Source: an uncultured Bacteroidales bacterium (GTDB taxonomy: Bacteria; Bacteroidota; Bacteroidia; Bacteroidales; Bacteroidaceae). Taken from it: a stretch of 64,000 bases of DNA. The notes beneath the pieces are model-generated. The model was not told where the DNA came from. It ran no database searches and saw only the letters and a program-made list of their open reading frames with translations. Positions 14,870 to 43,093 of the stretch are shown one piece after another. Position 1 is the stretch's first letter, and each line of letters starts with the position of its first letter. The DNA lies in contig CACZJU010000005.1 of the NCBI GenBank assembly GCA_902781515.1, forward strand, positions 28,911-92,910, written 5' to 3'. Both the position numbers and the translations under genes were made by a program.

Positions 14870-14884
14870 GACCCCTTTCCTAAA

Positions 14885-14915
14885 TCCCTCCCCGCTAATG
14901 GGGAGGGACTTTTTA
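14885..14915 (+). terminator. Rho-independent terminator after pfp
   Basis: A perfect 9-bp stem, tccctcccc (14885-14893) with ggggaggga (14900-14908), has a 6-nt loop and is followed by cTTTTTaT. Confidence 0.8.
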
Positions 14916-14916
14916 T

Positions 14917-15756
14917 ATGAATAAACAACGTAGATATAACAATCGGACGAGGGGTAGGGGTTCGCGCAAGCGTAGCTCTCGCGTTCGTTCGTGGTGGGCG
15001 CTGCTGGCTGGTGGCGTTCTCGTGGCAGTTGTCTATGTTGCTGTCTTCTATCATTTTTTTGTCAGTCCTCTCTCTTTCCGCTGGCGTGCCATCTACGGCG
15101 AGCCCGGCTATCCTTCTGGCTACAGCGTGATGGGAATCGACATCAGTCATCATCAGTCGGATGTTGACTGGCTACGGCTGCGCAATGCCCATGTTGCCGA
15201 CCTTCCGCTGCACTTCGTAATCATCAAGGCTACGGAGGGAACGAAGCTCATCGATGAGAATTTCAACGATAATTTCTATCGTGCTCGTGAAAACGATTTA
15301 GTGAGAGGAGCCTATCATTACTACAAAACGAATCGTGACCCGAAGACACAGGCTAAGTTCTATCTGAAGCAAGTGCATCTGCTCGATGGTGACCTGCCTC
15401 CGATTCTCGACATTGAGGAACGTGGCAATAAACCTCTGAAGCAGTTTCAGAAGGATGTTCTGAAATGGTTGGAGCTTGTAGAAGAGGAATACAACGTGGC
15501 TCCCATCATCTACACGGGTTATAAGTTCAAGGTCGATTATCTGAATACTCCTGAGTTCGACCGCTATCCCCTGTGGATAGCTCATTATTACGAGAAGCAG
15601 TTGAAGTATAAAGGCCCGTGGCTTATGTGGCAATATACCGACTGCGGACGTGTTGATGGTATCAAGGGAACCGTTGACCTCAACATCTTCAACGGCGAAG
15701 TTGCCGACCTCATGGCCTCCACCCTCCAGCCCTCATCCGACGAGCCCGAGGAGTAG
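14917..15756 (+). CDS. GH25 lysozyme (muramidase) with N-terminal membrane anchor
   Basis: GIDISHHQSDVDW, FVIIKATEGTKLIDENF and GAYHYY are GH25 signature blocks. The N-terminus is basic, followed by the TM segment WWALLAGGVLVAVVYVAVFY. Confidence 0.85.
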   Translation: MNKQRRYNNRTRGRGSRKRSSRVRSWWALLAGGVLVAVVYVAVFYHFFVSPLSFRWRAIYGEPGYPSGYSVMGIDISHHQSDVDWLRLRNAHVADLPLHFVIIKATEGTKLIDENFNDNFYRARENDLVRGAYHYYKTNRDPKTQAKFYLKQVHLLDGDLPPILDIEERGNKPLKQFQKDVLKWLELVEEEYNVAPIIYTGYKFKVDYLNTPEFDRYPLWIAHYYEKQLKYKGPWLMWQYTDCGRVDGIKGTVDLNIFNGEVADLMASTLQPSSDEPEE

Positions 15757-16581
15757 CATTGCCCAGCCGTTATGAGAGGTGCGGCTTTGCAATTCGAAAC
15801 CCAGTTCCTTGCCTTTATTAATTAGTGAAGCGGCATCCTCGTCGTAGAAGCCGCTCAGCAATAGCTGACCGCCCTTGCGCAGGGCTTTGGCAAAGCGTGG
15901 CAGGTCGCCAAGCAATATGTTGCGGTTGATGTTGGCAATCAGCAGGTCGTAGTCGCCTGTCTGTGGCAGTACGGCACTATCGCCCTCACATACATTTATA
16001 TTATATATAGAGTTCAGCTCGGCGTTGATGAGTGTGTTGCTGACACTCCATTCGTCTATGTCGTAGGCAAATATCTCGCTTGCTCCGCGTTTGGCGCACA
16101 GGAAGCCCAGCACTCCAGTGCCGCATCCGGCATCTATTATGCACATTCCCTCCAACGGCATCTTGCATAGCTGTCGCAGTATCTGTTGTGTAGTGGGATG
16201 TGTGCCCGTACCGAAAGCCATGCGTGGGTTGATGATGATGTCGTACTCGCAACGGGTTGGGGCAGGGTGGTGCGTATCGTGAACGCACACCAGACGGTCA
16301 ATCACTATCGGTTCGAAGCCCTCAGCCTCCCACGTTTCGTTCCAGTCTTCATCGGGAGTCTCCTCGCAGGTGAACGTGATGTTCACGTCGGGCATCAGGA
16401 AATTATCTGCAATACCCTTTACTGCCACTTCGTCGTACAACTGTTGCTGCACGTAGGCCTCCAAGCCGCGTTCCGTAGGAACGAATGTCTCGAACCCCTC
16501 GTCAGCCAACAGCGCGCTCAGCACGTCGCACGCCTCTTCGCTCATCGGCTCTATTCCGAACTCAAGCTTATAGTACTTCAT
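15733..16581 (-). CDS. prmA: Ribosomal protein L11 methyltransferase
   Basis: 282 aa with the SAM motif IIDAGCGTGVLGF. The N-terminal PrmA-type domain begins MKYYKLEFGIEP... It overlaps the GH25 gene 3' end convergently by 24 nt. Confidence 0.88.
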   Translation of the reverse strand: MKYYKLEFGIEPMSEEACDVLSALLADEGFETFVPTERGLEAYVQQQLYDEVAVKGIADNFLMPDVNITFTCEETPDEDWNETWEAEGFEPIVIDRLVCVHDTHHPAPTRCEYDIIINPRMAFGTGTHPTTQQILRQLCKMPLEGMCIIDAGCGTGVLGFLCAKRGASEIFAYDIDEWSVSNTLINAELNSIYNINVCEGDSAVLPQTGDYDLLIANINRNILLGDLPRFAKALRKGGQLLLSGFYDEDAASLINKGKELGFELQSRTSHNGWAMLLLGLVG

Positions 16582-16583
16582 CT

Positions 16584-18539
16584 TTATTTTCTCACGCTCT
16601 TCTTACTGTCGGAGATGAATATGCCCTTGTGGTTGCGGTCTTGAATCTTGCGTCCGTTGAGGTCGTAAATATTGTCCTTTGTGTCGCGGCTGTTGGGGAT
16701 ATCTCCGATGCCGTCTGTCATCTCCTGACTGTCGGTGTAGGTTATTGTCTTCAGGTTGTAGCAACCGGCAAAAGCAAAGTCGTCAACTCTGTCCTCCAAA
16801 CTCTTGTCAATCTCCATTTCAATCAGTTGGTTGCAGAGGTGGAATGCCAGACGATTAACGCCTGATACAGTGTATGTTACGCCGTTGTTCTCAATTGTTG
16901 CAGGAATCACGAGTTTACCCTCCGAATACTGAGGAATGCAGGCGTTGTAACCGTTGCCGATGACTGCCTCGTGTGTCTCTTCGTCAAGGATAGCTTCCAC
17001 CTCTATGTCCTCGTCGTTGAGGCTCAGCGTCACCTTCTTCACGTTTGCTACCGATGGGTCTGTAGAAGCCGTGCCGTCGAACATATTGCTACCTTTGCCG
17101 GTGAGAATATATTCCATCAGTTCCTCCTCATCCTTGCCGACATTAAGTCCGGTGAAGAATACCGCTCCACCATTTTCATGGTCCCACGAGATGTCTATGC
17201 CCGTGCCTGCGGTGTATAGCTTGCAGTTCTCGCCCAAAGTCTCCATTGCCGAAGTGGCGTTGTCGTAGGGAACCACGGTGTCAGAGCAGTAGTGCCACAT
17301 TGCTACGGGGTTCTTGGGCAGCCAGCCCTTCGTCAGGTTGTTGCTTTCGAGAGCCATGTGCAGGTCTTCGCAGATACCGCGTGTAGTGGGCAGTGCATCG
17401 AAGTTCTCGGCATTGCTGAAATATTCCAGCACCTGTGGTGTAAACAGGTTCTGTATATATGCCGTGCCGTCGCTGTTCAGAACCTTCATGAACTTCTTGT
17501 CCTCCTCTGCAGGCTTTTGGGCTTTCTCGTTGCTGTACAGTTTCTTCAGCGCATCGGTGATGTCGTCGGTCGTTTTCTCCTTCTCAGGGTCGTTCTTGTC
17601 GGCAATCCACTGGAAGATGCCGGTGTCTATGAAGTCCTTCACGATGTAGTCCTCCACCTCGTGCTCTTTCATGTAGGGGTTGCTGTCCAGCATTCCTTTC
17701 AGTATCAGGGGTATCACCACGGGCATATTTAGCAAACCGCCGTTCTCGCGCAGATAGTAGCGCACGGTGGCAATGGGGTCATAAGGACCGTCGCCGCACA
17801 CCGAACCTGCGAAGTGCAGTTCCTCGTCGAGGTCGTTCTGTTCTATGAATCTATGCGTTGCCAAAGCCACCGAACTGCCTTGCGAGTAACCTACGGCAGC
17901 CGTCTTCCATCCCTTGCGCAGGGGATTGCGGTAGTCGGCAATCACAGGACTCTCCTGATACAGGGCAATGCCGTAGCGTGTGGCATCAACCACCTGACGT
18001 GCCGTCAGTTCCTGATAGAGATAGGGGTGGGGCAGGTCCTTCGTTATTCCGTAACCCTCGTAGTCGGGCAGAATCACAAGGTTGTAGTACAATGGGTTGT
18101 CCTTCGACGTAGGGAACACACTGCCGTTTGCTGCGTGCCACATTAGCATTCCCGTGTCGCTTTTCCAGTCGCCGCTATTGTAATACTCCGAAGGTGTTTC
18201 CTTGTTACTGGTGATGGTCACGTGACAGCCGATGATGACGTTGTTGATGGAGTCGGGACTACCGTCGGGGAATGTCGCGAGAGCCGACATAATTACGGGT
18301 TCGCCATTGGCATTCACGGAAGGGTAGTAGAAGCGAAACCAGTACATATCGTACCAACTGTTGTACACCTCGTCGGTGAAGTCCGTTGCTTCTGCACTGC
18401 GTAGTGCGCGAGCCTTCATCGCGGGACTGTCGGCAGCCATCTTCATGCGTCCGAAGCTCTCTATGCGAGCCCCTTCCTGTGCCCATGCTCCTGTGACAAT
18501 CATCACCAGCCACACCGCCAGCAATCTCTTCATATCCAT
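16584..18539 (-). CDS. Secreted alpha/beta-hydrolase (lipase-like) with BspA-type leucine-rich repeat and T9SS C-terminal sorting domain
   Basis: Signal peptide LLAVWLVMIVTGAWAQ and nucleophile elbow GYSQGS. The LRR-like segment is VTYTVSGVNRLAFHLCNQLIEMEID...FAFAGCYNLKTITY. The C-terminus IYDLNGRKIQDRNHKGIFISDSKK resembles a T9SS CTD. Confidence 0.6.
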   Translation of the reverse strand: MDMKRLLAVWLVMIVTGAWAQEGARIESFGRMKMAADSPAMKARALRSAEATDFTDEVYNSWYDMYWFRFYYPSVNANGEPVIMSALATFPDGSPDSINNVIIGCHVTITSNKETPSEYYNSGDWKSDTGMLMWHAANGSVFPTSKDNPLYYNLVILPDYEGYGITKDLPHPYLYQELTARQVVDATRYGIALYQESPVIADYRNPLRKGWKTAAVGYSQGSSVALATHRFIEQNDLDEELHFAGSVCGDGPYDPIATVRYYLRENGGLLNMPVVIPLILKGMLDSNPYMKEHEVEDYIVKDFIDTGIFQWIADKNDPEKEKTTDDITDALKKLYSNEKAQKPAEEDKKFMKVLNSDGTAYIQNLFTPQVLEYFSNAENFDALPTTRGICEDLHMALESNNLTKGWLPKNPVAMWHYCSDTVVPYDNATSAMETLGENCKLYTAGTGIDISWDHENGGAVFFTGLNVGKDEEELMEYILTGKGSNMFDGTASTDPSVANVKKVTLSLNDEDIEVEAILDEETHEAVIGNGYNACIPQYSEGKLVIPATIENNGVTYTVSGVNRLAFHLCNQLIEMEIDKSLEDRVDDFAFAGCYNLKTITYTDSQEMTDGIGDIPNSRDTKDNIYDLNGRKIQDRNHKGIFISDSKKSVRK

Positions 18540-18660
18540 ACAGCTTTATTTACACTTTTCCAATCTTTTTTTCGCCGTAAAATTACACTTTTCCAATGAA
18601 TCTGCCAAGCGTTTCGAGGGAAAAAGTGCCCCGTAATGTTTCGCAGGTCGTGGGATTCTC

Positions 18661-18677
18661 TTCACAAGCCTTGTGAA
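18661..18677. promoter_or_regulatory. 17-bp perfect palindrome TTCACAAG-C-CTTGTGAA, candidate operator of island operon 1
   Basis: The 8-nt arms are exact reverse complements around a single C. A near-identical copy lies at 29461-29477. Both sit 56-63 nt upstream of a TATATTTG box. Confidence 0.55.
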
Positions 18678-18723
18678 AATAAATTAATCTGTGCTTTCCT
18701 ACTCGTTTAAGTAAAATAATCAT

Positions 18724-18731
18724 TATATTTG
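18724..18731 (+). promoter_or_regulatory. -7 promoter box (TAtaTTTG) for island operon 1
   Basis: tatatttg ends 23 nt before ATG 18755. Confidence 0.55.
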
Positions 18732-18754
18732 TGGCATAAATAGACAATAATACC

Positions 18755-27408: not shown

Positions 27409-28184
27409 GAGTATTGTCATTAACAAAGTTTGAAGAAGGCATGATTAACGAAGATGCCGCTATCGCTAAAGGAAACTTGGTAGCAGTATCGGATGGTGCT
27501 GGTGGTGGAGGTGTTTTCGCAGACAAATGGTCTAAGTATTTGGTAGAACACCTGCCTGATGAACCTATTGCAGATTATGAGTCGTTCGATAAATGGATTG
27601 AAGGTATTTGGGAGCCATTCTATAATGATTGTGAGAAAAAGGCAAAAATAGAAGGTGGCTTGTTTCTAAATAAGTTTTATGACGAGGGCTCGTTTGCTAC
27701 ACTGGTGGCAGTATGGAATACCGGCCAATGGATAAGTTATGGAGATAGTGTAGTTTTCTGCTATGACAGAGATAATGGTCGGTTGCAACATTCATTTGGC
27801 CCCTTGCTTGATTTCAACAATCCACCATATCTTATTAACTGCAAAGACCCACTTATTGAGGAGGGCTTTAATTCTGGTCAGTTTGACATTAGACCTGACA
27901 GCATTGTCTTTGCTGCCAGTGATGCTTTGTCTCATTATATATTAATGATGTTCAAGGTGGCACACAGGGAAGAGTTTGAAAGCGAATTGCAGGTCGCTAT
28001 CAATGCTCAAACAAAAAACAGCAATTTTATCAGAATATGTATGAGTCAGCGTAAGATAGACTTTGAGGATGTCATTAAGAAATTGGCCCTATGTAAAAAT
28101 GCAGGAAACTATATGAGACACCTCAAAGGCATAAGGACGAAGGGCTTGATTGGGCACGATGACTATACAATAGCAATTATGTGA
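27405..28184 (+). CDS. PP2C-family Ser/Thr protein phosphatase
   Basis: INEDAAI, VAVSDGAGGGG, GSFATLV, YGDSVVF and AASDALSHY follow the PP2C metal-binding motif order. ATGA overlap with the DarT-vWA stop at 27405-27408. Confidence 0.75.
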   Translation: MRVLSLTKFEEGMINEDAAIAKGNLVAVSDGAGGGGVFADKWSKYLVEHLPDEPIADYESFDKWIEGIWEPFYNDCEKKAKIEGGLFLNKFYDEGSFATLVAVWNTGQWISYGDSVVFCYDRDNGRLQHSFGPLLDFNNPPYLINCKDPLIEEGFNSGQFDIRPDSIVFAASDALSHYILMMFKVAHREEFESELQVAINAQTKNSNFIRICMSQRKIDFEDVIKKLALCKNAGNYMRHLKGIRTKGLIGHDDYTIAIM

Positions 28185-28188
28185 ACGT

Positions 28189-29436
28189 ATGGAAAAGAAG
28201 AATAGCGGATATACTCCAGACTACATAGATACCCTGCTGTCGAATCAGATATTTGTGTTTGGTAGCAACTCGTTGGGTTATCATACAGGTGGTGCCTCTA
28301 GTACTGCAAGAAAAAAGTTTGGTGCTGTTTGGGGACAGCCGGAAGGACTACAGGGACAAAGTTATGCTATTCCTGTAGATTATGGCAAAGGCGTTAGGAA
28401 AGATGCGGAAGTTAAGACGGCTATTGACAGGTTTATTGAGTTTGCAAAAGCACATCATGAGCTCTTTTTCTATGTAACTCGTGTAGGTTGTGGAATTGCT
28501 GGTTATCACGACGAGGAGATGGCACAGTTCTTCATGGAGGCATTGGAACTGAAGAATGTATGTCTGCCAAAGAGCTTCGTTGATGCACTCAACAATGGAA
28601 GAATTGAGTATGACCTGGAACGATTTGTTGAAGCGCAGAATATGGTATATGATATGGCACTTCATGAAATAAAGGAGGGTCAGAAACGGGGCCACTGGAT
28701 ATGGTTTGTTTTTCCGCAGATTAAAGGTTTAGGTCATAGCTATAACTCCGAATACTATGGAATAAGCGGGGTGAATGAGGCTAAATCCTACTTGGAGCAC
28801 CCTCTATTAGGAGCCAGACTCAGAAAAATATCTCAGGCAATGCTAGATTGTGGCAACCCATCTGCAGATGACATCCTCGGATTTCCAGACATATTGAAGG
28901 TCAGGTCGTGTATGACGCTGTTTGATATGATATCACCCAATGACATTTTTAGGCAGGTGTTGGATAAATACTATGGTGGCAAGCCCTGTGACAAAACCAT
29001 TTGGCGTTTAGGAACACGCGAGGAGAAATCGAAAAATGCTATAAAACTGAGCAAACTACGTATTGCCAAAGATAGTTCTATTATTCTTGCTGATTACCAG
29101 AAAGAGGTTAAGTTGGAGCCCATAGTCAAAGCTGTATATTTACTGTTCTTGAATCATCCAGAGGGAATCGCTTTCAAGTATCTTCCCGGCTACAGGAACG
29201 AACTGACTGATTTATATCAGAAGATAAAACCCTTAGGTTTGACTGAAAGAGCAATTAGAAGTATTGAGGATGTTACGAACCCACTTCTTAATTCTATCAA
29301 TGAGAAGTGTTCACGCATCAGAGCAGCTTTTTTGCCCGAGGTTAACTCCACTTTGTTGGAGCAATATATTATTACCGGCAAGAGTGGGGATCTCAAGAAG
29401 ATAGCCCTACCTCGAGATTTGGTAATCTGGGAATAA
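28189..29436 (+). CDS. Three-part fusion: A1S_2505-like phage-associated domain, then DUF1810, then an unknown C-terminal domain
   Basis: Residues 20-135: IFVFGSNSLGYHTGGASSTARKKFGAVWGQPEGLQGQSYAIPV...VTRVGCGIAGY. I recall this pattern from 'A1S_2505 family phage non-structural protein' (unverified). Residues ~140-270: RFVEAQNMVYDMALHEIKEGQKRGHWIWFVFPQIKGLGHS...LGARL...YGGKPCDKT, which is the DUF1810 signature. Residues 280-415 are unknown. Confidence 0.6.
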   Translation: MEKKNSGYTPDYIDTLLSNQIFVFGSNSLGYHTGGASSTARKKFGAVWGQPEGLQGQSYAIPVDYGKGVRKDAEVKTAIDRFIEFAKAHHELFFYVTRVGCGIAGYHDEEMAQFFMEALELKNVCLPKSFVDALNNGRIEYDLERFVEAQNMVYDMALHEIKEGQKRGHWIWFVFPQIKGLGHSYNSEYYGISGVNEAKSYLEHPLLGARLRKISQAMLDCGNPSADDILGFPDILKVRSCMTLFDMISPNDIFRQVLDKYYGGKPCDKTIWRLGTREEKSKNAIKLSKLRIAKDSSIILADYQKEVKLEPIVKAVYLLFLNHPEGIAFKYLPGYRNELTDLYQKIKPLGLTERAIRSIEDVTNPLLNSINEKCSRIRAAFLPEVNSTLLEQYIITGKSGDLKKIALPRDLVIWE

Positions 29437-29460
29437 AAAGCACTTCAACATTTTCATCAT

Positions 29461-29477
29461 TCCACAAGCCTTGTGAA
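29461..29477. promoter_or_regulatory. Second copy of the palindrome (TCCACAAG-C-CTTGTGAA), candidate operator of island operon 2
   Basis: 16/17 identical to 18661-17; the core CACAAG-C-CTTGTG is perfect. It is followed by collinear blocks (TTTCCT, TTTAAGTA, TATATTTG) that are also found after the first copy. Confidence 0.5.
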
Positions 29478-29516
29478 ATGTTTTTCCTTGTCTGCATAAT
29501 TTTAAGTATGTACCTT

Positions 29517-29524
29517 TATATTTG
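29517..29524 (+). promoter_or_regulatory. -7 promoter box (TAtaTTTG) for island operon 2
   Basis: tatatttg ends 18 nt before ATG 29543. Confidence 0.5.
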
Positions 29525-29542
29525 AAAACTTAACATTAAATA

Positions 29543-29761
29543 ATGAAGTATATGAAAAGAATTGAAACAATGAAATGCAGGTACCCGATTGTGTTTTGGA
29601 TTGGGTGGATTGCCATCGCTGTGTGGATGGCATTGTCGATAGCGAATTATGCCTGTAGTTACACGCTTTTCAAACTGAAGGTCTTGAGCGGTTGCGGATA
29701 CTTTATGACTATCCTTGGGATGTTCGCAATGTTCCGTTCGCTGGATTGGAGGAGGTATTAA
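29543..29761 (+). CDS. Small membrane protein (2 predicted TM helices)
   Basis: 72 aa with hydrophobic stretches IVFWIGWIAIAVWMALSIA and GYFMTILGMFAMF. Confidence 0.4.
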   Translation: MKYMKRIETMKCRYPIVFWIGWIAIAVWMALSIANYACSYTLFKLKVLSGCGYFMTILGMFAMFRSLDWRRY

Positions 29762-29762
29762 A

Positions 29763-29945
29763 ATGGAGCGTGAAGATTTTATAAAAATCGATGAAAAAAG
29801 CTACAAAGATTACCTTAATCTTGATATTGTCGCATTTTCCCTTGCTTATGGAGGAGCCATGGGCAGTCCTGGTAAGATTTTAGTAGTCACCAAAGATGCA
29901 AATATATATAGTATGAATGACATATTCGACATACCTCTTTTCTAA
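29763..29945 (+). CDS. Hypothetical 60-aa protein
   Basis: ATG 29763 (MEREDFIKIDEK...) lies 1 nt after the preceding stop. The track's longer 29715 start would overlap the previous ORF. Confidence 0.35.
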   Translation: MEREDFIKIDEKSYKDYLNLDIVAFSLAYGGAMGSPGKILVVTKDANIYSMNDIFDIPLF

Positions 29946-29953
29946 TTTAGCAA

Positions 29954-30958
29954 ATGTCTGTATTTTATTCAAAAAAAATATTTATGAGGAAATATCATAA
30001 AAAACTAATCCCAAAGCATCAAAACTTTGTAAACCAGTACGTGCTTTCACGATATAATCCGAGAGGCATATACAGGAGAGCCTATTTCTGTGAGGATGAG
30101 GACATTGCTTTTGTCATACGTGTTGAGGATTACGAGGACAATCCCGATAGTTGGGGATGTGTTAATATGCAACATCAGTTACTTGTGCCTTTCCAATATG
30201 AGCGGATATTTGACTATGGCAGGTATCTCATTGCCACTAATTGGGAAGGAAGATTTCTATACAATAAGAAAGGGAAAATGCTCTATGAAATTGGTAGGGT
30301 TCTTAAGCCCCATCATCAAGCATACAGATTGATATTTGATCCTGAAAATGAAAACTTTAGAATTGCAATAAGGAAAATGGCAATTTCAAAGGAGCAATAT
30401 GAGATTTTTTATTCTATGCCCAATGGCCTTGTTTTCGCTAAGCGAAAGGAGGGAAAAGTTGGAGCCATCCTTTTTTCCAAGTTGAAACTACCATTTGAAT
30501 ATTATGCTATTGCTGTTCCTCAAAATGGTTATACATTGGGAGTGATTGAGGAAGGGCAAGCGGATGACGGAGAACCATTATTCAACTGTCAACTCATAAA
30601 AGTAAGAAGCCAAATAAAGAAAGAAGGCTCTATTCACCCTACAGGTATTTATATATTCACTTGCCTTAGAGAAGATGAGGTGAAGGATTTCTTTAGGAAT
30701 AAAGAACGAGTTGCCAATGAGTGCAACAAAATTGTTCGCAATAACGAACAAGTCCATTTCTCTGTAGAAGATTTAAAGTTATTTCCCTTTGATACAGACA
30801 ATTTGCCAAAAGAACCTGATTACGAAGAGGATGAAGAAACTGATGAGGATGAACGGGATGACAACATGAGTCTGTATGACTATCTTCATCAGTGGGATGA
30901 TTCTGCAAACATTGCTTATGAAGGATATAGCCGATTGTATTTAGGTTATGATGATTAG
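29954..30958 (+). CDS. WG-repeat-like protein with strongly acidic C-terminal tail
   Basis: WGCVNMQHQLLVPFQYERIFDY and GKVGAILFSKLKLPFEYYAI fit the WG-repeat pattern. The tail is PKEPDYEEDEETDEDERDDN...GYSRLYLGYDD. Confidence 0.5.
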   Translation: MSVFYSKKIFMRKYHKKLIPKHQNFVNQYVLSRYNPRGIYRRAYFCEDEDIAFVIRVEDYEDNPDSWGCVNMQHQLLVPFQYERIFDYGRYLIATNWEGRFLYNKKGKMLYEIGRVLKPHHQAYRLIFDPENENFRIAIRKMAISKEQYEIFYSMPNGLVFAKRKEGKVGAILFSKLKLPFEYYAIAVPQNGYTLGVIEEGQADDGEPLFNCQLIKVRSQIKKEGSIHPTGIYIFTCLREDEVKDFFRNKERVANECNKIVRNNEQVHFSVEDLKLFPFDTDNLPKEPDYEEDEETDEDERDDNMSLYDYLHQWDDSANIAYEGYSRLYLGYDD

Positions 30959-31062
30959 TAGTGAATAATGGAAATGGTAAAGTATGAATCCAACGCCCCG
31001 TTAGTGATATTATAAAGCTGAAATAATTATACACAAATTACAAACCTACAAAGTCTACTATA

Positions 31063-31713
31063 ATGATACAAATCGTTGATGGTTATACTTTAATAGAATG
31101 TTTGCTAAAAATAGCAGATGAAGAAGGAAAGATAATCGTGGATAAAACAACTTATCTGCCAGACATAAAGCATTACAAGAACGAATGTATATTAATTGAA
31201 AAATTATGTTCATTAATGAATGTCTATGGGATAAATCCTATCTTAGATAAAGACTTTATAGATGAACGACCTGAAAACTATTTTATATGTTTTATCAATA
31301 ATGAGTTTTCAGACCAACGAAAAGAATTAACACTAAAGCACTTAAATAAAATGTTTAGACTCGGAAAATCCGATTTGTCTGCAATGCTGTCGACAAGAAA
31401 GGCAAGATTTGAGAGCTTCTTATATTTGTTTAAGTATAGAAAGAAACTACAAGACTTAGAGTTTTCAAATTGTGACTTCAAGGAACTTGGGGATTCCCAT
31501 GCCAAATTGGTTTGCAAATCCCTAACAGACATACTATTTTGTAAGAAGATTGAGCCAGCCTGTGCTTTCCTTGAAAAAGCAATGCTCTTGTTGATGGGGG
31601 ATTATGTAGATAAGAAATATAAAGATATCGATTTAATTCGGGACTTTGGCTATCCTGGAATTATCCCCGAAAACATAAACAAAGAGCCGAATGATGATAC
31701 CCCACCATTTTAA
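31063..31713 (+). CDS. Hypothetical protein (216 aa)
   Basis: ORF with an ATG start in the same orientation as the island. No motif recognised. Confidence 0.4.
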   Translation: MIQIVDGYTLIECLLKIADEEGKIIVDKTTYLPDIKHYKNECILIEKLCSLMNVYGINPILDKDFIDERPENYFICFINNEFSDQRKELTLKHLNKMFRLGKSDLSAMLSTRKARFESFLYLFKYRKKLQDLEFSNCDFKELGDSHAKLVCKSLTDILFCKKIEPACAFLEKAMLLLMGDYVDKKYKDIDLIRDFGYPGIIPENINKEPNDDTPPF

Positions 31714-31727
31714 TAAACAAATATAAT

Positions 31728-32891
31728 ATGTCTCGAAGACTGAAGAAACCGTATAGAAGGCTGCTGAAGACGATTGCTGTAGTTGCCGTAATTGTGTTGC
31801 TGAAATGGCTATGGCTAGCTGTTTCCACAATGGGGCACGGCTCGTTTGAAGGGGAGAAAACGGAGATATTGCGACGCCGCAATTATCTTACAGAACGTTT
31901 AGTGACTTCACAACAGGAAGTTTTTGAGGAGATGCCAAAAGGTCTGGAATCGCAGTTCCAAGGGGAGTGGGCAATGTATTCATGCTCTATGCTAACGGCA
32001 GCGCTGGTGAATATCGCAAAGCTTTATCCTGAAGAACGAGAAAAGTCTATGGGGCAGATAGATAGGCTTATTGAAATCGTATTGACGGAACAGATGAGGC
32101 AATATGATACTGCACGCTGGGGTGAAGACCCGTTGGATAGTTGGGAAAGCGAGAAAAGTCATATGTCGTATCTAAGTATCTTAGCTTGGATGATTAGCGG
32201 ATACAAAGCTGTGGGCGGAGGGGACAAATACGATGATTGGTATTTTCGACTATGCAGCACATTGAACTGGCGCATGAAGAAGAGTCCAACACTGAACCTC
32301 CAGACCTATCCTGACGAGGCTGTTTATGTACCAGATATGCTTGTTGCGATTGTAGCTTTGTCGAACTTTACACGCCAATGCGACGATAGATACCAAAGCA
32401 CTATAAACGAATGGCTGCATAAGGCAAAAACGGAATGGACAGATAAGGAAACGGGACTGCTGAAATCCTTCCTAAGCTACGATGGTACAGAACTGTCGGA
32501 ACCCATAAAGGGCTCTTATTCTGCACTTAACTGTTATTATCTTACCTTTGTAGATACAACCTTTGCCAAAGAACAATACGGACTGATGAAAAAATATTTC
32601 AAGAAGGCACGTCCTGTAACAGGAATCCGAGAGTATTACGACCGCTCATGTTGGATAGGATTGGATGCTGACGCTGGGCCCATAATTTTTAACCTGAGTC
32701 CATCAGGTACAGCCTTTGCTATAGGCCCTGCAACCTATTTCAATGATTCGGAATTCCGCAAACAATTATTGAGAACTGCTGAAATCGCAGGCTCAACTTT
32801 CCGTGGGTGGAACACCAATCACTATCTGCTTGCTAATGTGGCATTAGTGGGCGAGGCTGTGGCTCTCGCCATGCGAACACATACAAAATGA
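31728..32891 (+). CDS. Membrane-anchored hypothetical protein (387 aa)
   Basis: The N-terminal TM is TIAVVAVIVLLKWLWLAV, and the rest is helical-looking. G+C is noticeably higher than in the upstream island genes. Confidence 0.45.
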   Translation: MSRRLKKPYRRLLKTIAVVAVIVLLKWLWLAVSTMGHGSFEGEKTEILRRRNYLTERLVTSQQEVFEEMPKGLESQFQGEWAMYSCSMLTAALVNIAKLYPEEREKSMGQIDRLIEIVLTEQMRQYDTARWGEDPLDSWESEKSHMSYLSILAWMISGYKAVGGGDKYDDWYFRLCSTLNWRMKKSPTLNLQTYPDEAVYVPDMLVAIVALSNFTRQCDDRYQSTINEWLHKAKTEWTDKETGLLKSFLSYDGTELSEPIKGSYSALNCYYLTFVDTTFAKEQYGLMKKYFKKARPVTGIREYYDRSCWIGLDADAGPIIFNLSPSGTAFAIGPATYFNDSEFRKQLLRTAEIAGSTFRGWNTNHYLLANVALVGEAVALAMRTHTK

Positions 32892-32906
32892 ATTAAAACA
32901 AACGTT

Positions 32907-33731
32907 ATGGATAATAGTATTCTCATAGGTGCTATCGCAGGAGATGTAATAGGTTCTGTTTATGAGTTTTGCCCATGTCGGAGTACTGACTTTAAGTTGT
33001 TCTATTCGGATTCCAGGTTTACGGACGATACAGTAATGACTGTTGCTATAGCAGATTGGCTTCTGACGGGCAACGACTTGGTGAAGACTATGCAGAAGTG
33101 GGGACGGAAATATCCGTTTGCCGGATATGGTCAGCGTTTCATGTTTTGGCTGGCTGATCCAAATCCACAGCCATACGACAGTTGGGGTAATGGGAGTGCA
33201 ATGCGTGTAAGTCCTGTCGGATGGGCTTTTGAAACACTTGATGAAACTCTTGAGTTTGCAAAGCGAAGTGCCGATGTATCCCATAATCATCCTGAAGGGA
33301 TTAAAGGAGCTCAGGCTACAGCTGCATGTATATTCATGGCACGAACAGGGAAGAAGAAGGCTGAGATTAAGGATTATGTTGAACAAACATTTGGTTATGA
33401 CCTTAGCCGGAAATGTGATGACATTCGTCCTGAATATCGCCATACAGAAAGTTGTCAGGGAAGTGTTCCTGAATCTATTATTGCTTTTCTTGAAAGCAGC
33501 GATTATGAGAGCACCATCCGACTTGCCGTTTCTCTGGGTGGCGATGCAGATACGATGGCGGCCATAGCAGGCAGCATTGCAGAGGCGTATTATGATGGTG
33601 TGCCTAACCATATCAAGGAGGAGGTGATTAAAAGATTACCACAGGAGATGGTAGATACGATGAGCTACTTTTACTTTATATATTTACATCACACTTCCAG
33701 AGCCAACACAAAGAACAATCCGTCATCTTGA
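32907..33731 (+). CDS. ADP-ribosylglycohydrolase (ARH/DraG family)
   Basis: IAGDVIGSVYEF, RFTDDTVMT, WGNGSAMRVSP and LGGDADTMAAIAGSIAEAYY are signature blocks of the PF03747-type fold, including the metal-binding D/T residues. Confidence 0.85.
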   Translation: MDNSILIGAIAGDVIGSVYEFCPCRSTDFKLFYSDSRFTDDTVMTVAIADWLLTGNDLVKTMQKWGRKYPFAGYGQRFMFWLADPNPQPYDSWGNGSAMRVSPVGWAFETLDETLEFAKRSADVSHNHPEGIKGAQATAACIFMARTGKKKAEIKDYVEQTFGYDLSRKCDDIRPEYRHTESCQGSVPESIIAFLESSDYESTIRLAVSLGGDADTMAAIAGSIAEAYYDGVPNHIKEEVIKRLPQEMVDTMSYFYFIYLHHTSRANTKNNPSS

Positions 33732-33779
33732 AATTTTAAATGGTAAATGTCTAGTAGCTTAGTTGCTTTAAAGAGGGGA

Positions 33780-33859
33780 AATAGGGAATTTCCCCCAAGG
33801 AATGGGAAAAATCCTCTTGCAGTGCCAGAAAAAGGTGGTAATTTTGCAGCGTAGAAAAT
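33780..33859. repeat. 80-bp direct repeat, copy 1 (promoter cassette upstream of djlA-like gene)
   Basis: aatagggaatttccccCaaggaatgggaaaaatcctcttgcagtgccagaaaaaggtggtaattttgcagcgtagaaaat is 79/80 identical to 35981-36060. It contains the palindrome GGGAA-T-TTCCC and a TAatTTTG box at 33839-33846. Confidence 0.9.
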
Positions 33860-33868
33860 ACGTGATAT

Positions 33869-34645
33869 ATGGCAATAGGAAAATGGATAGGGGGATTCCT
33901 GGGACTGCTTAGCGGCGGTCCGCTGGGAATGTTGGCTGGCATTGTGCTGGGTGCAGTGGCTGATTCGGTGTTCGACCAAGACAATTACTTCAAGCCCGGC
34001 GAAGGCATGGGAAATGCGGCTTACCAGCAGCAGGGGGCACGCAATGGGTTCCTGTTCTCGCTGATGGTGCTGGCTGCGCACATCATACATGCCGACCGTC
34101 GTGTGATGCACAGCGAGATGGAGTATGTACGGCGTTTCCTGCGCACGAATTTCTCGCAGGATGCGGAGCGCGAGGGCGAAGAGATTCTGCTGCGCCTGTT
34201 TGAAGAGAAGAAGCGCATGGGCGACAGCGAATGGGTGCAACAGATTGTGGCAGTGTGTCAGCAGTTGGCTTACGCTATGCCTATGGAGCAGCGCCTGCAA
34301 CTGATAGCAATGCTGTGCGAGATAGCAAAGGCGGATGGCACGATTCAGCAGGAGGAGCGTGAGGCTCTGCGGCAGGTGTGTGTGAATATGGGGCTCGACG
34401 GAGGTACTGCAGAGCAGATGTTGGGACTTGGTGGTGAGACGCTTGACGAAGCTTACCGTGTGCTGGGCCTTTCGCCCGATGCCACTGACGATGATGTGCG
34501 TCAGGCCTATAAACGTATGGCTCGCGAGAATCATCCCGACCGTGTGGCTTCGCTTGGTGAGGATATCCGTCGCTCGGCAGAACGCAAGTTCCAAGAGATT
34601 GCCGATGCCAAGGACCGCATCTACCGTGCCCGCAACATGAAATAA
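33869..34645 (+). CDS. djlA: DjlA-like co-chaperone (N-terminal TM, TerB-like domain, C-terminal J domain)
   Basis: TM is WIGGFLGLLSGGPLGMLAGIVLGAV. The tellurite-resistance TerB-like middle contains LIAMLCEIAKADGTIQQEERE. The J domain is AYRVLGLSPDATDDDVRQAYKRMARENHPDR, with the HPD motif. Confidence 0.8.
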   Translation: MAIGKWIGGFLGLLSGGPLGMLAGIVLGAVADSVFDQDNYFKPGEGMGNAAYQQQGARNGFLFSLMVLAAHIIHADRRVMHSEMEYVRRFLRTNFSQDAEREGEEILLRLFEEKKRMGDSEWVQQIVAVCQQLAYAMPMEQRLQLIAMLCEIAKADGTIQQEEREALRQVCVNMGLDGGTAEQMLGLGGETLDEAYRVLGLSPDATDDDVRQAYKRMARENHPDRVASLGEDIRRSAERKFQEIADAKDRIYRARNMK

Positions 34646-34646
34646 T

Positions 34647-34712
34647 TTGAGAATTTTGTTTGGGAGAATTGAGAATTTTGTTTGTGAGAATTGAGAATTT
34701 TGTATATCTTTG
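34647..34712. repeat. 22-bp tandem repeat, about 2.6-3 copies (ttgagaattttgtttgKgagaa)
   Basis: The units are 34647-34668, 34669-34690 (1 mismatch) and a partial, diverged third unit 34691-34712. The third unit ends in a TAtcTTTG box (34705-34712) upstream of ATG 34733. Confidence 0.85.
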
Positions 34713-34732
34713 CAGTGGAAAACCAATTAGTT

Positions 34733-35926
34733 ATGTTTGAAAGGGCGCAAATCGGAGAATTGAAACAACGGATTCTAGAACCTCGGAATAAGATTCAGGT
34801 TATCTCAGGTCCTCGTCAGGTTGGTAAATCAACAATGGTGAAGCAAGTTCTGCAAGATGTCACCATTCCATATATGTTTGTCAGTGCGGACAATATAGAC
34901 CATGCTAACACTTCATGGATTGGCGAGATGTGGGCTACTGCCAGAGCACGTATGAAGGTTGCGAAGGATGAGGAATATTTGTTGGTTATTGATGAGGTAC
35001 ATAAACTGGACAATTGGAGTGAGGCCGTGAAGAAGGAATGGGATGAAGATACATTCAACGACCTGAATATGAAAGTCGTTATCCTTGGTTCTTCCAGATT
35101 ATTATTGAAAGACGGGTTGACGGAATCCCTGGCAGGAAGATACGAACTTATAAGAATGCCGCACTGGAGCTATAGCGAGATGCATGAGGCTTTTGGGATG
35201 GATATAGACCAGTATATCTATTTCGGTGGATATCCTGGCGGAGCTATGTATATTAAAAATGAACGTAGATGGCACAATTATATTAAAGATAGTATTGTTG
35301 CCCCTGCTATCGAAAGGGATGTGGTGCAGACAAAAACTGTGTATAAACCAGCATTGATGAAACAACTATTTGAACTTGGTTGTGCCTATTCAAGCGAAGA
35401 ACTGTCTCTGAACAAAATGGTCGGTCAATTGCAGGATGCAGGTAATGTTACTACATTGGCAGGTTATCTTACCACTCTGGACGAATCAAGATTGCTGTGT
35501 GGCTTAATGAAATATGCATCTGACAATGCCCGTAAATATAACTCAGTTCCCAAATTGATGGTTTATAATACCGCACTTTTTTCAGTTCAGAGCGGAGTGA
35601 ACTTTAAGAAGGCCTTTACTACGCCAAAACTATGGGGCCGTTGGGTGGAGAGTGCAGTTGGTGCATATCTTCTCAATCAAGCGGATGAGTACGATTACAA
35701 GCTATACTATTGGCGTGAGAGAGATGATGAAGTTGATTTTATTATCGATTATAACAGACAATGTATTGCCATAGAGGTTAAGAGTGGAAGGAGAATTAAT
35801 AATGAGGGACTTGGTGTGTTTCGCGACAAGTTCCATCCAATCCAGTCTTTTATCGTTGGTTCCGGTGGCATCCCCTTGGAAGAGTTCCTTACATGGAATA
35901 TAGGTGATTTGCTGGAAAGTGAATAA
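34733..35926 (+). CDS. AAA-type ATPase, DUF4143-containing family
   Basis: Walker A is ISGPRQVGKST and Walker B is LLVIDEVH. The C-terminal part (DEVDFIIDYNRQCIAIEVKSG) resembles the restriction-endonuclease-like DUF4143 module. I prefer ATG 34733 over the track's TTG 34691. Confidence 0.75.
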   Translation: MFERAQIGELKQRILEPRNKIQVISGPRQVGKSTMVKQVLQDVTIPYMFVSADNIDHANTSWIGEMWATARARMKVAKDEEYLLVIDEVHKLDNWSEAVKKEWDEDTFNDLNMKVVILGSSRLLLKDGLTESLAGRYELIRMPHWSYSEMHEAFGMDIDQYIYFGGYPGGAMYIKNERRWHNYIKDSIVAPAIERDVVQTKTVYKPALMKQLFELGCAYSSEELSLNKMVGQLQDAGNVTTLAGYLTTLDESRLLCGLMKYASDNARKYNSVPKLMVYNTALFSVQSGVNFKKAFTTPKLWGRWVESAVGAYLLNQADEYDYKLYYWRERDDEVDFIIDYNRQCIAIEVKSGRRINNEGLGVFRDKFHPIQSFIVGSGGIPLEEFLTWNIGDLLESE

Positions 35927-35980
35927 TCCTTTGAGGAGTATGAGATGCTGGAGGACGTGCCCGACGGGGGCTGAGCGAGG

Positions 35981-36060
35981 AATAGGGAATTTCCCCTAAG
36001 GAATGGGAAAAATCCTCTTGCAGTGCCAGAAAAAGGTGGTAATTTTGCAGCGTAGAAAAT
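35981..36060. repeat. 80-bp direct repeat, copy 2 (promoter cassette upstream of 36090 gene)
   Basis: See copy 1. The TAatTTTG box is at 36040-36047, the same offset (59) as in copy 1. Confidence 0.9.
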
Positions 36061-36089
36061 TGAATATTGAAGATTGAAAATTGAATATT

Positions 36090-37184
36090 ATGAAAAGGGT
36101 AGCATTATTTCTCATTATCTCATTCTCTCATTTTCTCATTCTCCAGAGCGTAGCGCAGGATGATATGTACTTCGTTCCGAAGAAGTCGAAGAAGACGAAG
36201 ACCACAAAGGTGGTCAATCAGAAGAGTGAGACGCTGGTGGATTACACCAACACGGATGCCGAGTACTATTCGGGCAACTTGCGCGATGTTGACGAGTACA
36301 ACCGTCGTGGAGGTTCGTCACGTAATCTCCTTGTGATGACTCCCACCGATACGTTCGAGATAGACGGCGACGACCTGCAGAAGGACGACAAGGGCAACTA
36401 CATCCTTGGTTCGGGTAAGAACAAGAGCAAGAAGTCGGCGCGTTATGATGACAGATACGACGATTACTATCTCGACGACTATATTTACTCGGCACGTCTG
36501 GCACGATTCCACGGTTTCGTCTATCCCTATTATGCGTGGTACGACCCCTTCTACTACGATCCCTTCTATTACACTTCGTGGTACTACGACCCTTGGTACT
36601 ACAGCACATATTGGGGATGGTACGGCGGTTGGCACGGGTACTATGGCTGGCACAGCCCTTGGTACTATAGCTCGTGGTATCATCATCCCGTTTACACCAC
36701 CCACACGGGAGGCTACACACATCGCGGCTTCAACGGCGGCAGAGGCTATGGACGCACTGGTGTTTCTTCTCGCGGTGGTACGGTCGCCAGTCGCGGTGGC
36801 AGCACAACACGATTGGCTGGCAACTCGCTGCAGAACCGCTCTACATCGCGTGGCTACACCATCGGAGGACGAGGCACAGGCACTCAGTCGTCTCGCGGCT
36901 ACAACACAAGCTCGTTGCGTGGCACCGTAAACAACGGTAGTTCTCGTGGCATCGGCAGCAGTTCATCGCGTTCCACCGTAACCAACACTGTTCGTTCAAC
37001 TTCTTCATCGCGAGGCAGTTACTCGGGCAGCAGTAGAGGCAGCAGCTATTCGGGCGGCAGCTCACGCAGCGGAGGCTTCTCAGGTGGAGGTAGCTCTCGC
37101 GGAGGCGGCGGTTTCTCTGGCGGTTCGCGCAGCGGCGGTGGCTTCTCAGGCGGTGGCAGTTCTCGCGGAGGCGGAAGACGATAA
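36090..37184 (+). CDS. Secreted low-complexity protein: Tyr/Trp-rich core and Ser/Arg/Gly-rich (RGG-like) tail
   Basis: Signal peptide is MKRVALFLIISFSHFLILQSVAQ. The core reads YPYYAWYDPFYYDPFYYTSWYYDPWYYSTYWGWYGGWHGYYGWHSPWYYSSWYHHPVY. The tail carries GGFSGGGSSRGGG-type repeats. Confidence 0.6.
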   Translation: MKRVALFLIISFSHFLILQSVAQDDMYFVPKKSKKTKTTKVVNQKSETLVDYTNTDAEYYSGNLRDVDEYNRRGGSSRNLLVMTPTDTFEIDGDDLQKDDKGNYILGSGKNKSKKSARYDDRYDDYYLDDYIYSARLARFHGFVYPYYAWYDPFYYDPFYYTSWYYDPWYYSTYWGWYGGWHGYYGWHSPWYYSSWYHHPVYTTHTGGYTHRGFNGGRGYGRTGVSSRGGTVASRGGSTTRLAGNSLQNRSTSRGYTIGGRGTGTQSSRGYNTSSLRGTVNNGSSRGIGSSSSRSTVTNTVRSTSSSRGSYSGSSRGSSYSGGSSRSGGFSGGGSSRGGGGFSGGSRSGGGFSGGGSSRGGGRR

Positions 37185-37239
37185 TAATTGATAATTGATA
37201 ATTGACAATTGATAATTCACAATGCACAATTGATAAGGC
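37184..37239. repeat. Heptanucleotide microsatellite (ATAATTG/ACAATTG), 8 units
   Basis: The units read ataattg ataattg ataattg acaattg ataattc acaatgc acaattg ataaggc. They lie between the stop at 37184 and ATG 37241. Confidence 0.85.
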
Positions 37240-37240
37240 G

Positions 37241-38854: not shown

Positions 38855-38880
38855 CCTACTGAACATACGGAAATGTAATA

Positions 38881-38915
38881 AAATCGGGACACTTTTTGTT
38901 GTCTCGATTTTTATT
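38881..38915 (+). terminator. Rho-independent terminator
   Basis: Stem aaatcgggaca (38881-38891) pairs with tgtctcgattt (38900-38910), with one G-T pair. It is followed by a T-run. Confidence 0.7.
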
Positions 38916-38917
38916 TG

Positions 38918-38925
38918 TAACTTTG
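38918..38925 (+). promoter_or_regulatory. -7 promoter box (TAacTTTG) for the cys operon
   Basis: taactttg ends 31 nt before ATG 38957. Confidence 0.5.
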
Positions 38926-38956
38926 TCGGCAACAATATATTAATGTACGCACGCGT

Positions 38957-39559
38957 ATGGCAGAGAATATATATCCGATATACGACAAGATGATGTCGCG
39001 CGAGGAGCGTGAGCAGCAGCTTGGACAGCACGGCATGATGGTGTGGTTTACAGGCTTGAGCGGCAGCGGAAAGTCCACCGTAGCACTTGGCGTAGAGCGT
39101 GAGTTGGCAAAGCGTGGTGTGCTGTGCCGCATACTCGACGGCGACAATATCCGTGCCGGCATCAACTCCAATCTGGGCTTCAGCGAGGAAGACCGCATGG
39201 AGAACATACGTCGTATTGCCGAAATAGGAAAACTGTTTGTGCAGACGGGCATCGTAACGCTGGCTTGCTTCGTAAGTCCTACGGAGGAAATACGTCAGTT
39301 GGCACGCACTATTATCGGTGACGAGGATTTCAACGAGGTCTTCGTATCTACTCCTCTCGAAGAGTGCGAGCGCAGGGACGTGAAAGGACTTTACGCCCGT
39401 GCCCGTAGAGGCGAGGTGAAGGACTTCACTGGCATCAGTGCTCCTTTCGAAGCTCCCAAGAATCCTGCCATTTCCATCGACACCTCTGTGCTTCCTCTCG
39501 AAGAAAGCGTAAACAGGGTGGTGGACATGATTATGGCAATCGCGAAGAAGGGTAAATAA
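38957..39559 (+). CDS. cysC: Adenylylsulfate (APS) kinase
   Basis: The P-loop is WFTGLSGSGKST, followed by LDGDNIR. 200 aa. Confidence 0.92.
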   Translation: MAENIYPIYDKMMSREEREQQLGQHGMMVWFTGLSGSGKSTVALGVERELAKRGVLCRILDGDNIRAGINSNLGFSEEDRMENIRRIAEIGKLFVQTGIVTLACFVSPTEEIRQLARTIIGDEDFNEVFVSTPLEECERRDVKGLYARARRGEVKDFTGISAPFEAPKNPAISIDTSVLPLEESVNRVVDMIMAIAKKGK

Positions 39560-39597
39560 TAAATGATAGATAATAAATAATAAATAATAGATAAAAT

Positions 39598-41965: not shown

Positions 41966-41971
41966 GTTGCC

Positions 41972-43090: not shown

Positions 43091-43093
43091 TCG

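Follow-up and report, generated by a model that had tools for sequence, protein, structure and literature searches.

A DarT-TerY fusion within a TerY-P-like operon on a strain-variable island of a rumen-type Prevotella, a candidate anti-phage system

We analysed a 64,000-nucleotide (nt) stretch of contig CACZJU010000005.1 (assembly GCA_902781515.1) from an uncultured rumen-type Prevotella, referred to below as the window, and describe an operon carried by a strain-variable island in it. The operon encodes, on the forward strand, two Ser/Thr kinases (STK1 and STK2), a DUF6939 protein, a protein in which a DarT ADP-ribosyltransferase (ART) is fused to a TerY-type vWA domain, a PP2C-like phosphatase and an A1S_2505/DUF1810 protein. 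Its kinases, phosphatase and vWA domain recall the TerY-P triad (TerY vWA, PP2C and Ser/Thr kinase), reportedly described by Anantharaman et al. in 2012, for which we know of no effector or mechanism; its DarT domain recalls DarTG1, said to be the subject of LeRoux et al. 2022. The island (18551-33837) is 15 kb in overall length, of low G+C, and carries 16 co-directional open reading frames (ORFs) on the forward strand. A first-pass annotation of the window had noted the AT-rich segment, and sliding 1-kb windows bear it out: G+C, at 0.50-0.55 in the flanks and 0.51-0.55 over 10-18 kb, falls to 0.32-0.42 across 18.5-31.5 kb, rises to 0.43-0.45 at 31.5-33.7 kb and is back to 0.51 at djlA. The same-strand ORFs lie where that annotation placed them, with ATGA overlaps at 21830 and 27405 and gaps of 2-10 nt between 18755 and 29436. 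The limits it gave for the island (18640-33731) are close to those of the segment that actually varies, 18551-33837. Its assignments of the kinases, DarT-vWA, PP2C, A1S_2505 with DUF1810 and an ADP-ribosylglycohydrolase (ARH) were all supported by profile searches.

The fusion gene (25954-27408) encodes DarT at about residues 21-201 and vWA at about residues 198-478, and the protein matches the DarT profiles of Pfam (PF14487, 5.7e-36) and PADLOC (1.5e-19) as well as PADLOC TerY (8e-53, positions 2-272 of 277). The catalytic residue E164 is encoded at 26443-26445 and the vWA MIDAS motif, DQSVS, at 26596-26610. The nearest match of the DarT domain in the PDB is E. coli C7 DarT1 (8BAQ), at about 25% identity; 'QAEVLV' of the window protein aligns with 'QAAILV' of 8BAQ, and E164 falls on the mutated catalytic position. 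DarT2 gave no PDB match at E <= 1. Across 19 fusions down to 29% identity E164 is invariant, Y26 and H27 are nearly invariant, and DQSVS is kept in the close homologues. The fusion was recovered from hundreds of independent assemblies.

The gene before it (25298-25951) encodes a DUF6939 protein (PF22075, 1.2e-74), which had been called NADAR-like at first pass. By sequence it has no match to Pfam NADAR, PDB profile searches were empty, and hhalign against E. coli YbiA gave 0.8%; phmmer with YbiA failed to reach even DarT1-type NADARs. An AlphaFold2 (AF2) model built from a shallow alignment reached a pLDDT of 59 and gave meaningless Foldseek matches, whereas a more diverse alignment raised the pLDDT to 87 overall, with at least 95 for residues 1-190. 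Searched against the PDB with Foldseek, the latter model has a single match, the NADAR of Geobacter lovleyi (8BAT; probability 1.00, E 1.3e-3, TM-score 0.51 over 171 columns), the next one lying at E 1.3. The NADAR-like call stands at the level of the fold and falls in the sequence and profile tests. By eye, an E-x6-K motif (E60, K67) is NADAR-like, and Asp153 is invariant. The protein in 8BAT is the antitoxin of a DarT1 and takes ADP-ribose off guanine in single-stranded DNA (ssDNA) (PMC11543638).

DUF6939 adjoins DarT-vWA even in fusions that are 36-47% identical to the window protein, and it is paired with DarT outside the TerY-P context as well. In Parabacteroides distasonis (NZ_OY725823.1, locus L101, 5293-9415), a coiled-coil-DarT protein with a 61% identical DarT domain is followed by a 58% identical DUF6939, and the locus has no vWA, kinase or PP2C. 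Because of the 8BAT fold match, the DarT1-like partner and this pairing, we read DUF6939 as a divergent NADAR-type antidote, a predicted DNA de-ADP-ribosylase. The P. distasonis pair is itself followed by a transmembrane (TM)/coiled-coil protein of 498 amino acids and an OmpA/MotB-like protein of 198 amino acids, and adjoins mobilisation genes (DUF3853, toprim, relaxase-like); the locus may encode another kind of DarT system, one with a stator-like sensor.

The DUF6939 protein of the window ends, behind a disordered Lys-rich linker, in a clamp-binding-like motif, ELNLF (25928-25942, forward strand). Such pentapeptides lie 0-2 residues from the C-terminus of DUF6939, and the commonest tails among 239 database members are QLDLF (55), QLSLF (55), QLELF (26) and ELDLF (21). 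The pattern [QE][LP]x[LIM](P)F is found at the tail of 181 of the 239, and 110 carry exactly QL[SD]LF; the consensus beta-sliding-clamp-binding motif is QL[S/D]LF (PMC12309361). Motifs of this type were found in none of 120 DarT-vWA proteins and none of 847 neighbouring ORFs. The tail has a pLDDT below 50 in the AF2 model. Its sequence points to an action of DUF6939 on DNA at the replisome, which is where DarT adducts in ssDNA matter most.

Both kinases are of the Hanks type. STK1 (18755-21010) has an N-terminal Ser/Thr kinase domain (residues 1-285) and C-terminal WG/beta-rich repeats and no TM segment; it matches Pkinase (2.3e-14) and PADLOC STK_OB (3.1e-52), and its motifs HGDLKPDN, DYDG and VFK are intact. 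STK2 (22098-25286) combines a lipoprotein-type signal, four WG repeats, a TM segment, the kinase domain (residues 562-824) and a C-terminal multi-TM region (WG_beta_rep 7.5e-30, Pkinase 4.3e-12, STK_OB 5.7e-53), and, with its hydrophobic segments judged from the translation, looks like a membrane receptor kinase. The match to the STK_OB profile is limited to positions 1-281 of 562, and the remainder of the kinases consists of WG, LRR_5, Sel1 or TPR repeats. Among 66 kinases of the system, the repeat modules are LRR_5 (39), LRR_8 (29), Sel1 (14), FNIP (8) and WG (6), plus TPR and others. The catalytic motifs are kept while the regions outside the kinase domain are hypervariable, and some of the kinases are membrane receptors.

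The gene for the PP2C-like phosphatase (27405-28184) overlaps that of DarT-vWA by ATGA, an arrangement for translational coupling. The protein matches the PADLOC PP2C profile at 2.7e-7, Pfam PP2C_2 matches weakly, in 10 of 34 orthologues, and a profile search of the PDB found nothing; its acidic metal-binding motifs (ED, DG, GDS, SD and DD) are invariant. The last gene of the operon (28189-29436) encodes an A1S_2505-N domain, a DUF1810 (Rv1873-like) domain and an unassigned C-terminal region of about 140 amino acids (NCBIfam 2.1e-37, Pfam 3.4e-53, PDB 2JEK 1.9e-31, PHROG 2072 4e-34).

Database searches returned 2,447 relatives of the DarT-vWA protein; each of the best 120 is full-length, with 74% identity or more. 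Among 50%-identity cluster representatives, which were searched exhaustively, full-length fusions form roughly a dozen clusters that reach down to 29-38% identity, and in many other proteins the same DarT clade is joined to other domains. Scanning one genome per species gave 159 genomes with a relative; each of the best 80 has a full-length DarT-vWA. Nearly all are Bacteroidales (Prevotella, Bacteroides, Parabacteroides, Alistipes, Muribaculaceae, Duncaniella), with a few short contigs in oddly named bins. The proteins of the window were mapped onto 84 loci and all neighbouring ORFs were clustered; about 95 related loci were compared overall, among which L001 is the same sequence as the window.

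DUF6939 lies directly upstream of DarT-vWA in 81 of the 84 loci and PP2C downstream in all 84, with median gaps of 12 nt between DUF6939 and DarT-vWA, -4 nt between DarT-vWA and PP2C (71 loci) and 4 nt between PP2C and A1S_2505/DUF1810. Of the 49 loci whose upstream sequence spans at least 4 kb, 48 have a kinase gene there on the same strand. Kinase copies number one to three in loci with at least 9 kb, and L082 has four kinase-like matches. A1S_2505/DUF1810 follows PP2C in 17 of 60 loci (about 30%). The conserved unit is kinase(s)-DUF6939-DarT/vWA-PP2C, often followed by A1S_2505/DUF1810, and is present in at least 80 Bacteroidales species, with the four-gene order and the coupling overlaps kept down to 36% identity. 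The first-pass annotation had proposed that TerY-P and DarT are merged here, and they are indeed one polypeptide in at least 80 species-level genomes; it had also treated the whole gene set as one system, and this did not hold, the conserved unit comprising just 4-5 of the 16 genes. Almost no families of flanking genes are common between loci, and the G+C of the system is below that of its flanks in 29 of 33 loci, by a mean of 6 points. The most frequent other insert, which the window lacks, is a DUF4062 or AlbA_2 + HATPase_c_4 + wHTH protein (16 of 79 loci) between the last kinase and DUF6939 (for example L002:7935-9347 and L043:631-2097).

Two divergent branches depart from this plan. At L086 (309-6575), in a branch at 38% identity, there is no PP2C, none of the HGDLKPDN, DYDG and Lys motifs is left in the kinase-like protein, and the vWA has a degenerate MIDAS, a trait of the three other fusions of the branch too. 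DarT and DUF6939 are intact there despite these losses, and the parts of the switch appear to have decayed together. The gene order of L098 is that of L086, and its contig ends at the fusion gene. At L088 (190-5181), a 30%-identical DarT-vWA stands behind HisKin-conflict (PF22561) and iREC (PF22563) proteins; kinase, PP2C and DUF6939 are all missing, and a two-component-like front end thus serves the same effector. Because of these two branches we regard DarT and its eraser as the constant effector pair and the signalling front-end as exchangeable.

Promoter-like sequence at both ends of the operon holds a 13-nt palindrome, CACAAG[C/G]CTTGTG (CACAAGSCTTGTG), which occurs just twice in the 64-kb window (expected number, 0.09). 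The first (CACAAGCCTTGTG, 18663-18675) is 92 nt upstream of the STK1 start codon, and a TAnnTTTG-type -7 box (TATATTTG, 18724-18731) lies about 50 nt downstream of it; the second (29463-29475) follows the A1S_2505/DUF1810 stop codon by 27 nt and precedes the next ORF by 80 nt. Besides L001, 16 related loci have 29 further sites, mostly at the same two positions (for example L009:1145 and 13510; L013:2218 and 13519). In at least 11 related loci the palindrome precedes the first gene of the operon, and in L009, L010, L013, L019, L022, L030, L031, L051 and L083 it directly follows the A1S_2505/DUF1810 stop codon; each time a TAnnTTTG-like box and a start codon come about 45-55 nt downstream of it. 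Judged from its sequence and placement, it is probably an operator common to the operon of the system and to downstream cargo, here 29543-33731, and in the window it is the sole evidence that ties the downstream genes, including ARH, to the system.

To find an empty site, contigs encoding exactly the DjlA of the window were looked up, which gave eight arrangements. One of them, L090, has the identical DjlA and flanks that are 97-98% identical to those of the island, and its alignments, at 94-98% identity, cover window positions 14785-15737, 15862-16622, 33838-34645 and 35941-45931. The distance between prmA and djlA in L090 is about 0.46 kb, and an unrelated spacer of about 440 nt stands where the window has 18551-33837 with its 16 ORFs. 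Because this near-identical strain lacks it, 18551-33837 is a true accessory island, present or absent between close strains; the accessory nature proposed at first pass is borne out by this comparison of prmA/lipase-djlA synteny. Contig L089 (98.4% identical), the sole contig from the metagenome scan with the lipase-like flank, stops exactly at window position 18550, and an exact look-up of the lipase-like flank protein returned no contig. The spacer of L090 (1804-2244) is AT-rich and repetitive, with GTCATAGC/GTTGTAGT tandem units and repeated GGTCTTATGSCAA elements. Beside the island, a gene for a 651-amino-acid lipase/LRR_5-like protein has its interior (16623-18522) deleted in L090 between 6-bp GAATAT microhomologies, and just its first and last few codons are left there (1776-1803).

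Other strains carry differing sequence upstream of djlA up to about position 33838. In L095 (2855-6460), which also has the identical DjlA, the same spot holds a BanI-type restriction enzyme, a DNA methylase and a HU-HIG gene, and this restriction-modification (R-M) cargo with HU-HIG is upstream of djlA in L091 and L097 too. Downstream of djlA, a gene for an AAA_14/DUF4143 ATPase (34691-35926; PADLOC candidate PDC-S01, 6e-178) is a separate polymorphism, present in L093, L095 and L097 and not in L090, L091, L092 or L094. An 80-nt direct repeat, 99% identical between its copies (33780-33859 and 35981-36060), brackets djlA and the AAA_14/DUF4143 gene; its first copy is the right junction of the island, and it may be a substrate for recombinational exchange of cargo at the hotspot. 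We found no tRNA and no Rfam match in the window, no repeat of at least 9 nt common to the two island junctions and no recombinase domain among the island ORFs by profile searches, in keeping with the earlier remark that integrase, tRNA and att repeats are missing. Relatives were not found in viral contigs or phages (IMG/VR, INPHARED), and no full-length fusion was found on PLSDB plasmids. The locus is a hotspot for defence cargo, which is probably exchanged by homologous recombination of the flanks.

The other genes of the island recur less often. Between the kinase genes, an ART-like gene (21015-21640) carries a 1-nt frameshift near 21510, after '...IITPK'. Intact orthologues of 210 amino acids (L013:4579-5211, L015:5156-5788, L024:3017-3649) read '...IITPKK..ARSLYKL.NH.NENQVTFKRGT...IIYMEEV*', and the window copy carries on the same sequence in the other frame. 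The frameshift seen at first pass is thus real, and the R-S-E ART family named with it has moderate support (C-terminal region of PHROG 595, 5.8e-8; Pfam ADPrib_exo_Tox, 0.016). In this protein 'NENQV' stands in place of the ExE of R-S-E ARTs, with Gln at the position of the catalytic Glu, intact copies included. A 305-amino-acid gene in the same slot of L002 was considered as the intact ART-like form and rejected; it is unrelated and weakly RES-like. Next come a 61-amino-acid ORF (21648-21833), private to the window, with no family match and no tblastn match in the related loci, and an 85-amino-acid protein (21830-22087), a facultative accessory with 53-81% identical copies in 8 loci, each directly before a Ser/Thr kinase.

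Past the second palindrome, two small overlapping ORFs (29543-29945; 72 amino acids, hydrophobic, and 76 amino acids) are private to the window, with no family match and, among the related loci, an occurrence just in L001. The next gene (29954-30958) encodes a 334-amino-acid protein with an acidic tail, which had been described as a further WG-repeat protein; its single WG repeat is sub-threshold (WG_beta_rep, E 0.0019), and no orthologue was found in the related loci. A 216-amino-acid protein (31063-31713) has no family match and is essentially private to the window, with one distant copy (29% identity) after A1S_2505/DUF1810 in L022. A 387-amino-acid protein with an N-terminal TM segment (31728-32891) is an occasional accessory, with copies 53-54% identical directly after PP2C in L016 and L021. 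The last gene (32907-33731) encodes the ARH/DraG-type ADP-ribosylglycohydrolase (PF03747, 1.9e-35; PHROG 6572, 5e-58). About 9 of 79 loci have an ARH gene, of one of two types, in the vicinity of the system, and in L009 ARH is the first gene of the operon.

TerY-P modules are stand-alone anti-phage systems, with activity shown by Gao et al. 2020 (summarised in PMC11090510). The present unit is like them in that the vWA, PP2C and kinase families are all adjacent and co-directional, match the PADLOC TerY-P models, keep the MIDAS and are borne on an island. It differs in that TerY carries an N-terminal DarT enzyme, which makes the effector explicit, in its fourth obligatory gene, DUF6939, and in its kinases, which have neither the OB fold of the Gao type nor the zinc ribbon of the CoCoNuT type and instead bear variable LRR, Sel1 or WG repeats, often in several copies. 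DarTG1 is a toxin-antitoxin (TA) system of phage defence in which NADAR undoes the ADP-ribosylation of guanine (Schuller et al. 2023, PMC11543638). Here too a DarT-family ART with the catalytic Glu, whose closest solved relative is DarT1, has a neighbour, modelled with a NADAR-like fold, and the pair also occurs alone. In contrast to the free-standing two-gene TA operon, however, the toxin is fused to vWA and placed under a kinase and a phosphatase, the predicted antidote diverges too far to match Pfam NADAR and ends in a putative clamp-binding tail, and its gene precedes that of the toxin. Unlike in DarTG2, which pairs DarT2 with a macrodomain DarG, no macro domain was found in any island ORF by profile searches.

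Other systems are comparable in part. The vWA-MoxR ternary systems (Kaur et al. 2020, 2021; PMC7159879, PMC8195603) likewise have an effector on the vWA polypeptide and separate sensor and threshold parts, but the present system has no MoxR ATPase, its effector is N-terminal rather than C-terminal via a vWA-L linker, its threshold would be set by phosphorylation, and its hosts are Bacteroidales rather than multicellular bacteria. As in DraT/DraG, ART-ARH and ART-macro pairs, an ADP-ribose writer and one or more erasers are encoded together, with ARH here and in about 9 related loci; the difference is that ARH is an optional component in the present system, where a NADAR-like protein is the candidate for the obligatory eraser and DNA is the predicted target. 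Searches of full-text literature turned up no mention of DUF6939, no combination of DUF4433 with vWA and nothing that links TerY-P to DarT beyond catalogue lists. The combination of DarT and TerY is not mentioned in the Aravind-lab papers examined, though the founding 2012 papers on TerY-P and the DarT family may refer to it in passing. The earlier statement that no system of such composition has been described agrees with our finding no paper on a DarT-TerY-P combination, the 2012 founding papers being outside the reach of the search. The system is a widespread, apparently undescribed hybrid of TerY-P and DarTG1; automated tools would label the locus TerY-P, and it is not a wholly new kind.

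With moderate confidence we interpret the cargo of the island as an anti-phage (conflict) system in which a TerY-P-type phospho-switch governs a toxin/antidote pair of the DarTG1 type, acting by DNA ADP-ribosylation, the catalytic and regulatory steps being ones that we infer. At rest, the vWA domain and dephosphorylation maintained by PP2C would hold DarT inactive, and the NADAR-like hydrolase, bound to DnaN at the replication forks, would remove any leaky modification from host ssDNA. The repeat module of a kinase may recognise a phage component or envelope damage; the kinase would then phosphorylate the TerY-vWA moiety, or the antidote, and so free DarT. Freed DarT would ADP-ribosylate bases in ssDNA, the target probably being guanine by analogy with DarT1, and replication of both phage and host would stall. 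Should the infection be aborted, PP2C and the eraser or erasers could restore the cell, and A1S_2505/DUF1810 and ARH would clear adducts or counter phage ARTs.

Several points weigh against this interpretation. We infer the toxicity, the DNA target, the base specificity, the kinase substrates and the phage protection alike, and phosphorylation could either activate or inhibit DarT. The kinship of DUF6939 to NADAR appears at the level of the fold alone (TM-score 0.51), with negative sequence and profile tests, and the clamp motif in the window is the weaker ELNLF variant, with Glu replacing Gln at position 1. The OB fold of experimentally validated TerY-P is missing from the kinases, and support for PP2C is weak by score and moderate overall. 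The window copy of the ART-like gene is disrupted, and several genes of the island are not recurrently associated with the system.

The same parts can be read in other ways. The receptor-like kinases might sense envelope or nutrient cues, with reversible DNA ADP-ribosylation pausing replication and PP2C and the clamp-bound NADAR-like enzyme restoring growth. A physiological regulator of this kind would suit STK2, a putative membrane receptor kinase with extracytoplasmic WG repeats, and a clamp-binding tail that hints at a routine role at host forks; DarTG of M. tuberculosis, moreover, coordinates growth via ssDNA ADP-ribosylation (PMC12170906). We nevertheless consider it unlikely, since near-identical strains differ in whether they carry the unit, its hotspot is also used by an R-M system, and its unrelated contexts, low G+C and hypervariable sensors are hallmarks of defence cargo and not of core regulation. 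Still less probable, in our view, is a selfish addiction module that stabilises the island, with DarT as toxin, DUF6939 as antitoxin and the kinase, PP2C and vWA parts tuning toxin stability. The minimal DarT-DUF6939 pair beside mobilisation genes in P. distasonis fits such a module, and DarTG is formally a type II/IV TA system (PMC11543638), but it leaves unexplained why a locus should have up to three kinases (four in L082) with fast-diversifying repeat sensors, the locus offers it neither an integrase nor a plasmid backbone to stabilise, and most tested DarTG systems of the TA type act in phage defence.

A protein or RNA target of DarT in place of DNA, for instance a phage protein held by the MIDAS, or the kinases, would make DUF6939, ARH and A1S_2505/DUF1810 erasers of ADP-ribose on proteins or small molecules. 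The peptide-binding nature of vWA domains (PMC9503650), the recurrence near the system of ARH enzymes, which usually act on protein ADP-ribose, and an identity to characterised DarT1 of just about 25% are in its favour. We rate it as improbable as the addiction module, as every characterised DarT modifies ssDNA bases and the partner DUF6939 has the fold of a DNA-guanine de-ADP-ribosylase and bears a sliding-clamp recruitment motif. Finally, TerY-P, an orphan DarT and stray hydrolases could have met by accident in a hotspot that does gather unrelated cargo (the R-M system, the PDC-S01-like AAA_14/DUF4143 gene and HU-HIG), and several island genes are private to the window. For the core such a pile-up is largely refuted, and we give it hardly any credence: DarT and TerY are one polypeptide, a mis-assembled fusion is excluded by the hundreds of independent assemblies, the four-gene order and overlaps persist in at least 80 species down to 36% identity, and the kinase motifs, PP2C and the MIDAS were lost together in L086, the one divergent locus examined for this.

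The fusion of DarT to TerY turns the matter of what the TerY-P phospho-switch controls into a directly testable question, and, if our interpretation is true, extends DarTG from a two-gene toxin-antitoxin pair to a signal-regulated module. It also gives DUF6939, a family with thousands of uncharacterised members, a candidate function in removing ADP-ribose from DNA at the replisome, and makes it a candidate new client of the bacterial sliding clamp. Going further, and only tentatively, the unit could represent an unrecognised, very widespread immune system of Bacteroidales in which arrays of receptor-like kinases with fast-evolving repeat sensors control the covalently attached DarT by phosphorylating its vWA scaffold, and a divergent, clamp-riding NADAR clears the host forks of adducts; it might then supply the missing effector logic of TerY-P and the first clamp-tethered DNA de-ADP-ribosylase. 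Rumen and gut Bacteroidales, in which experimental work has covered few defence systems, carry the system in abundance, and this makes it relevant to phage-host dynamics in those microbiomes.

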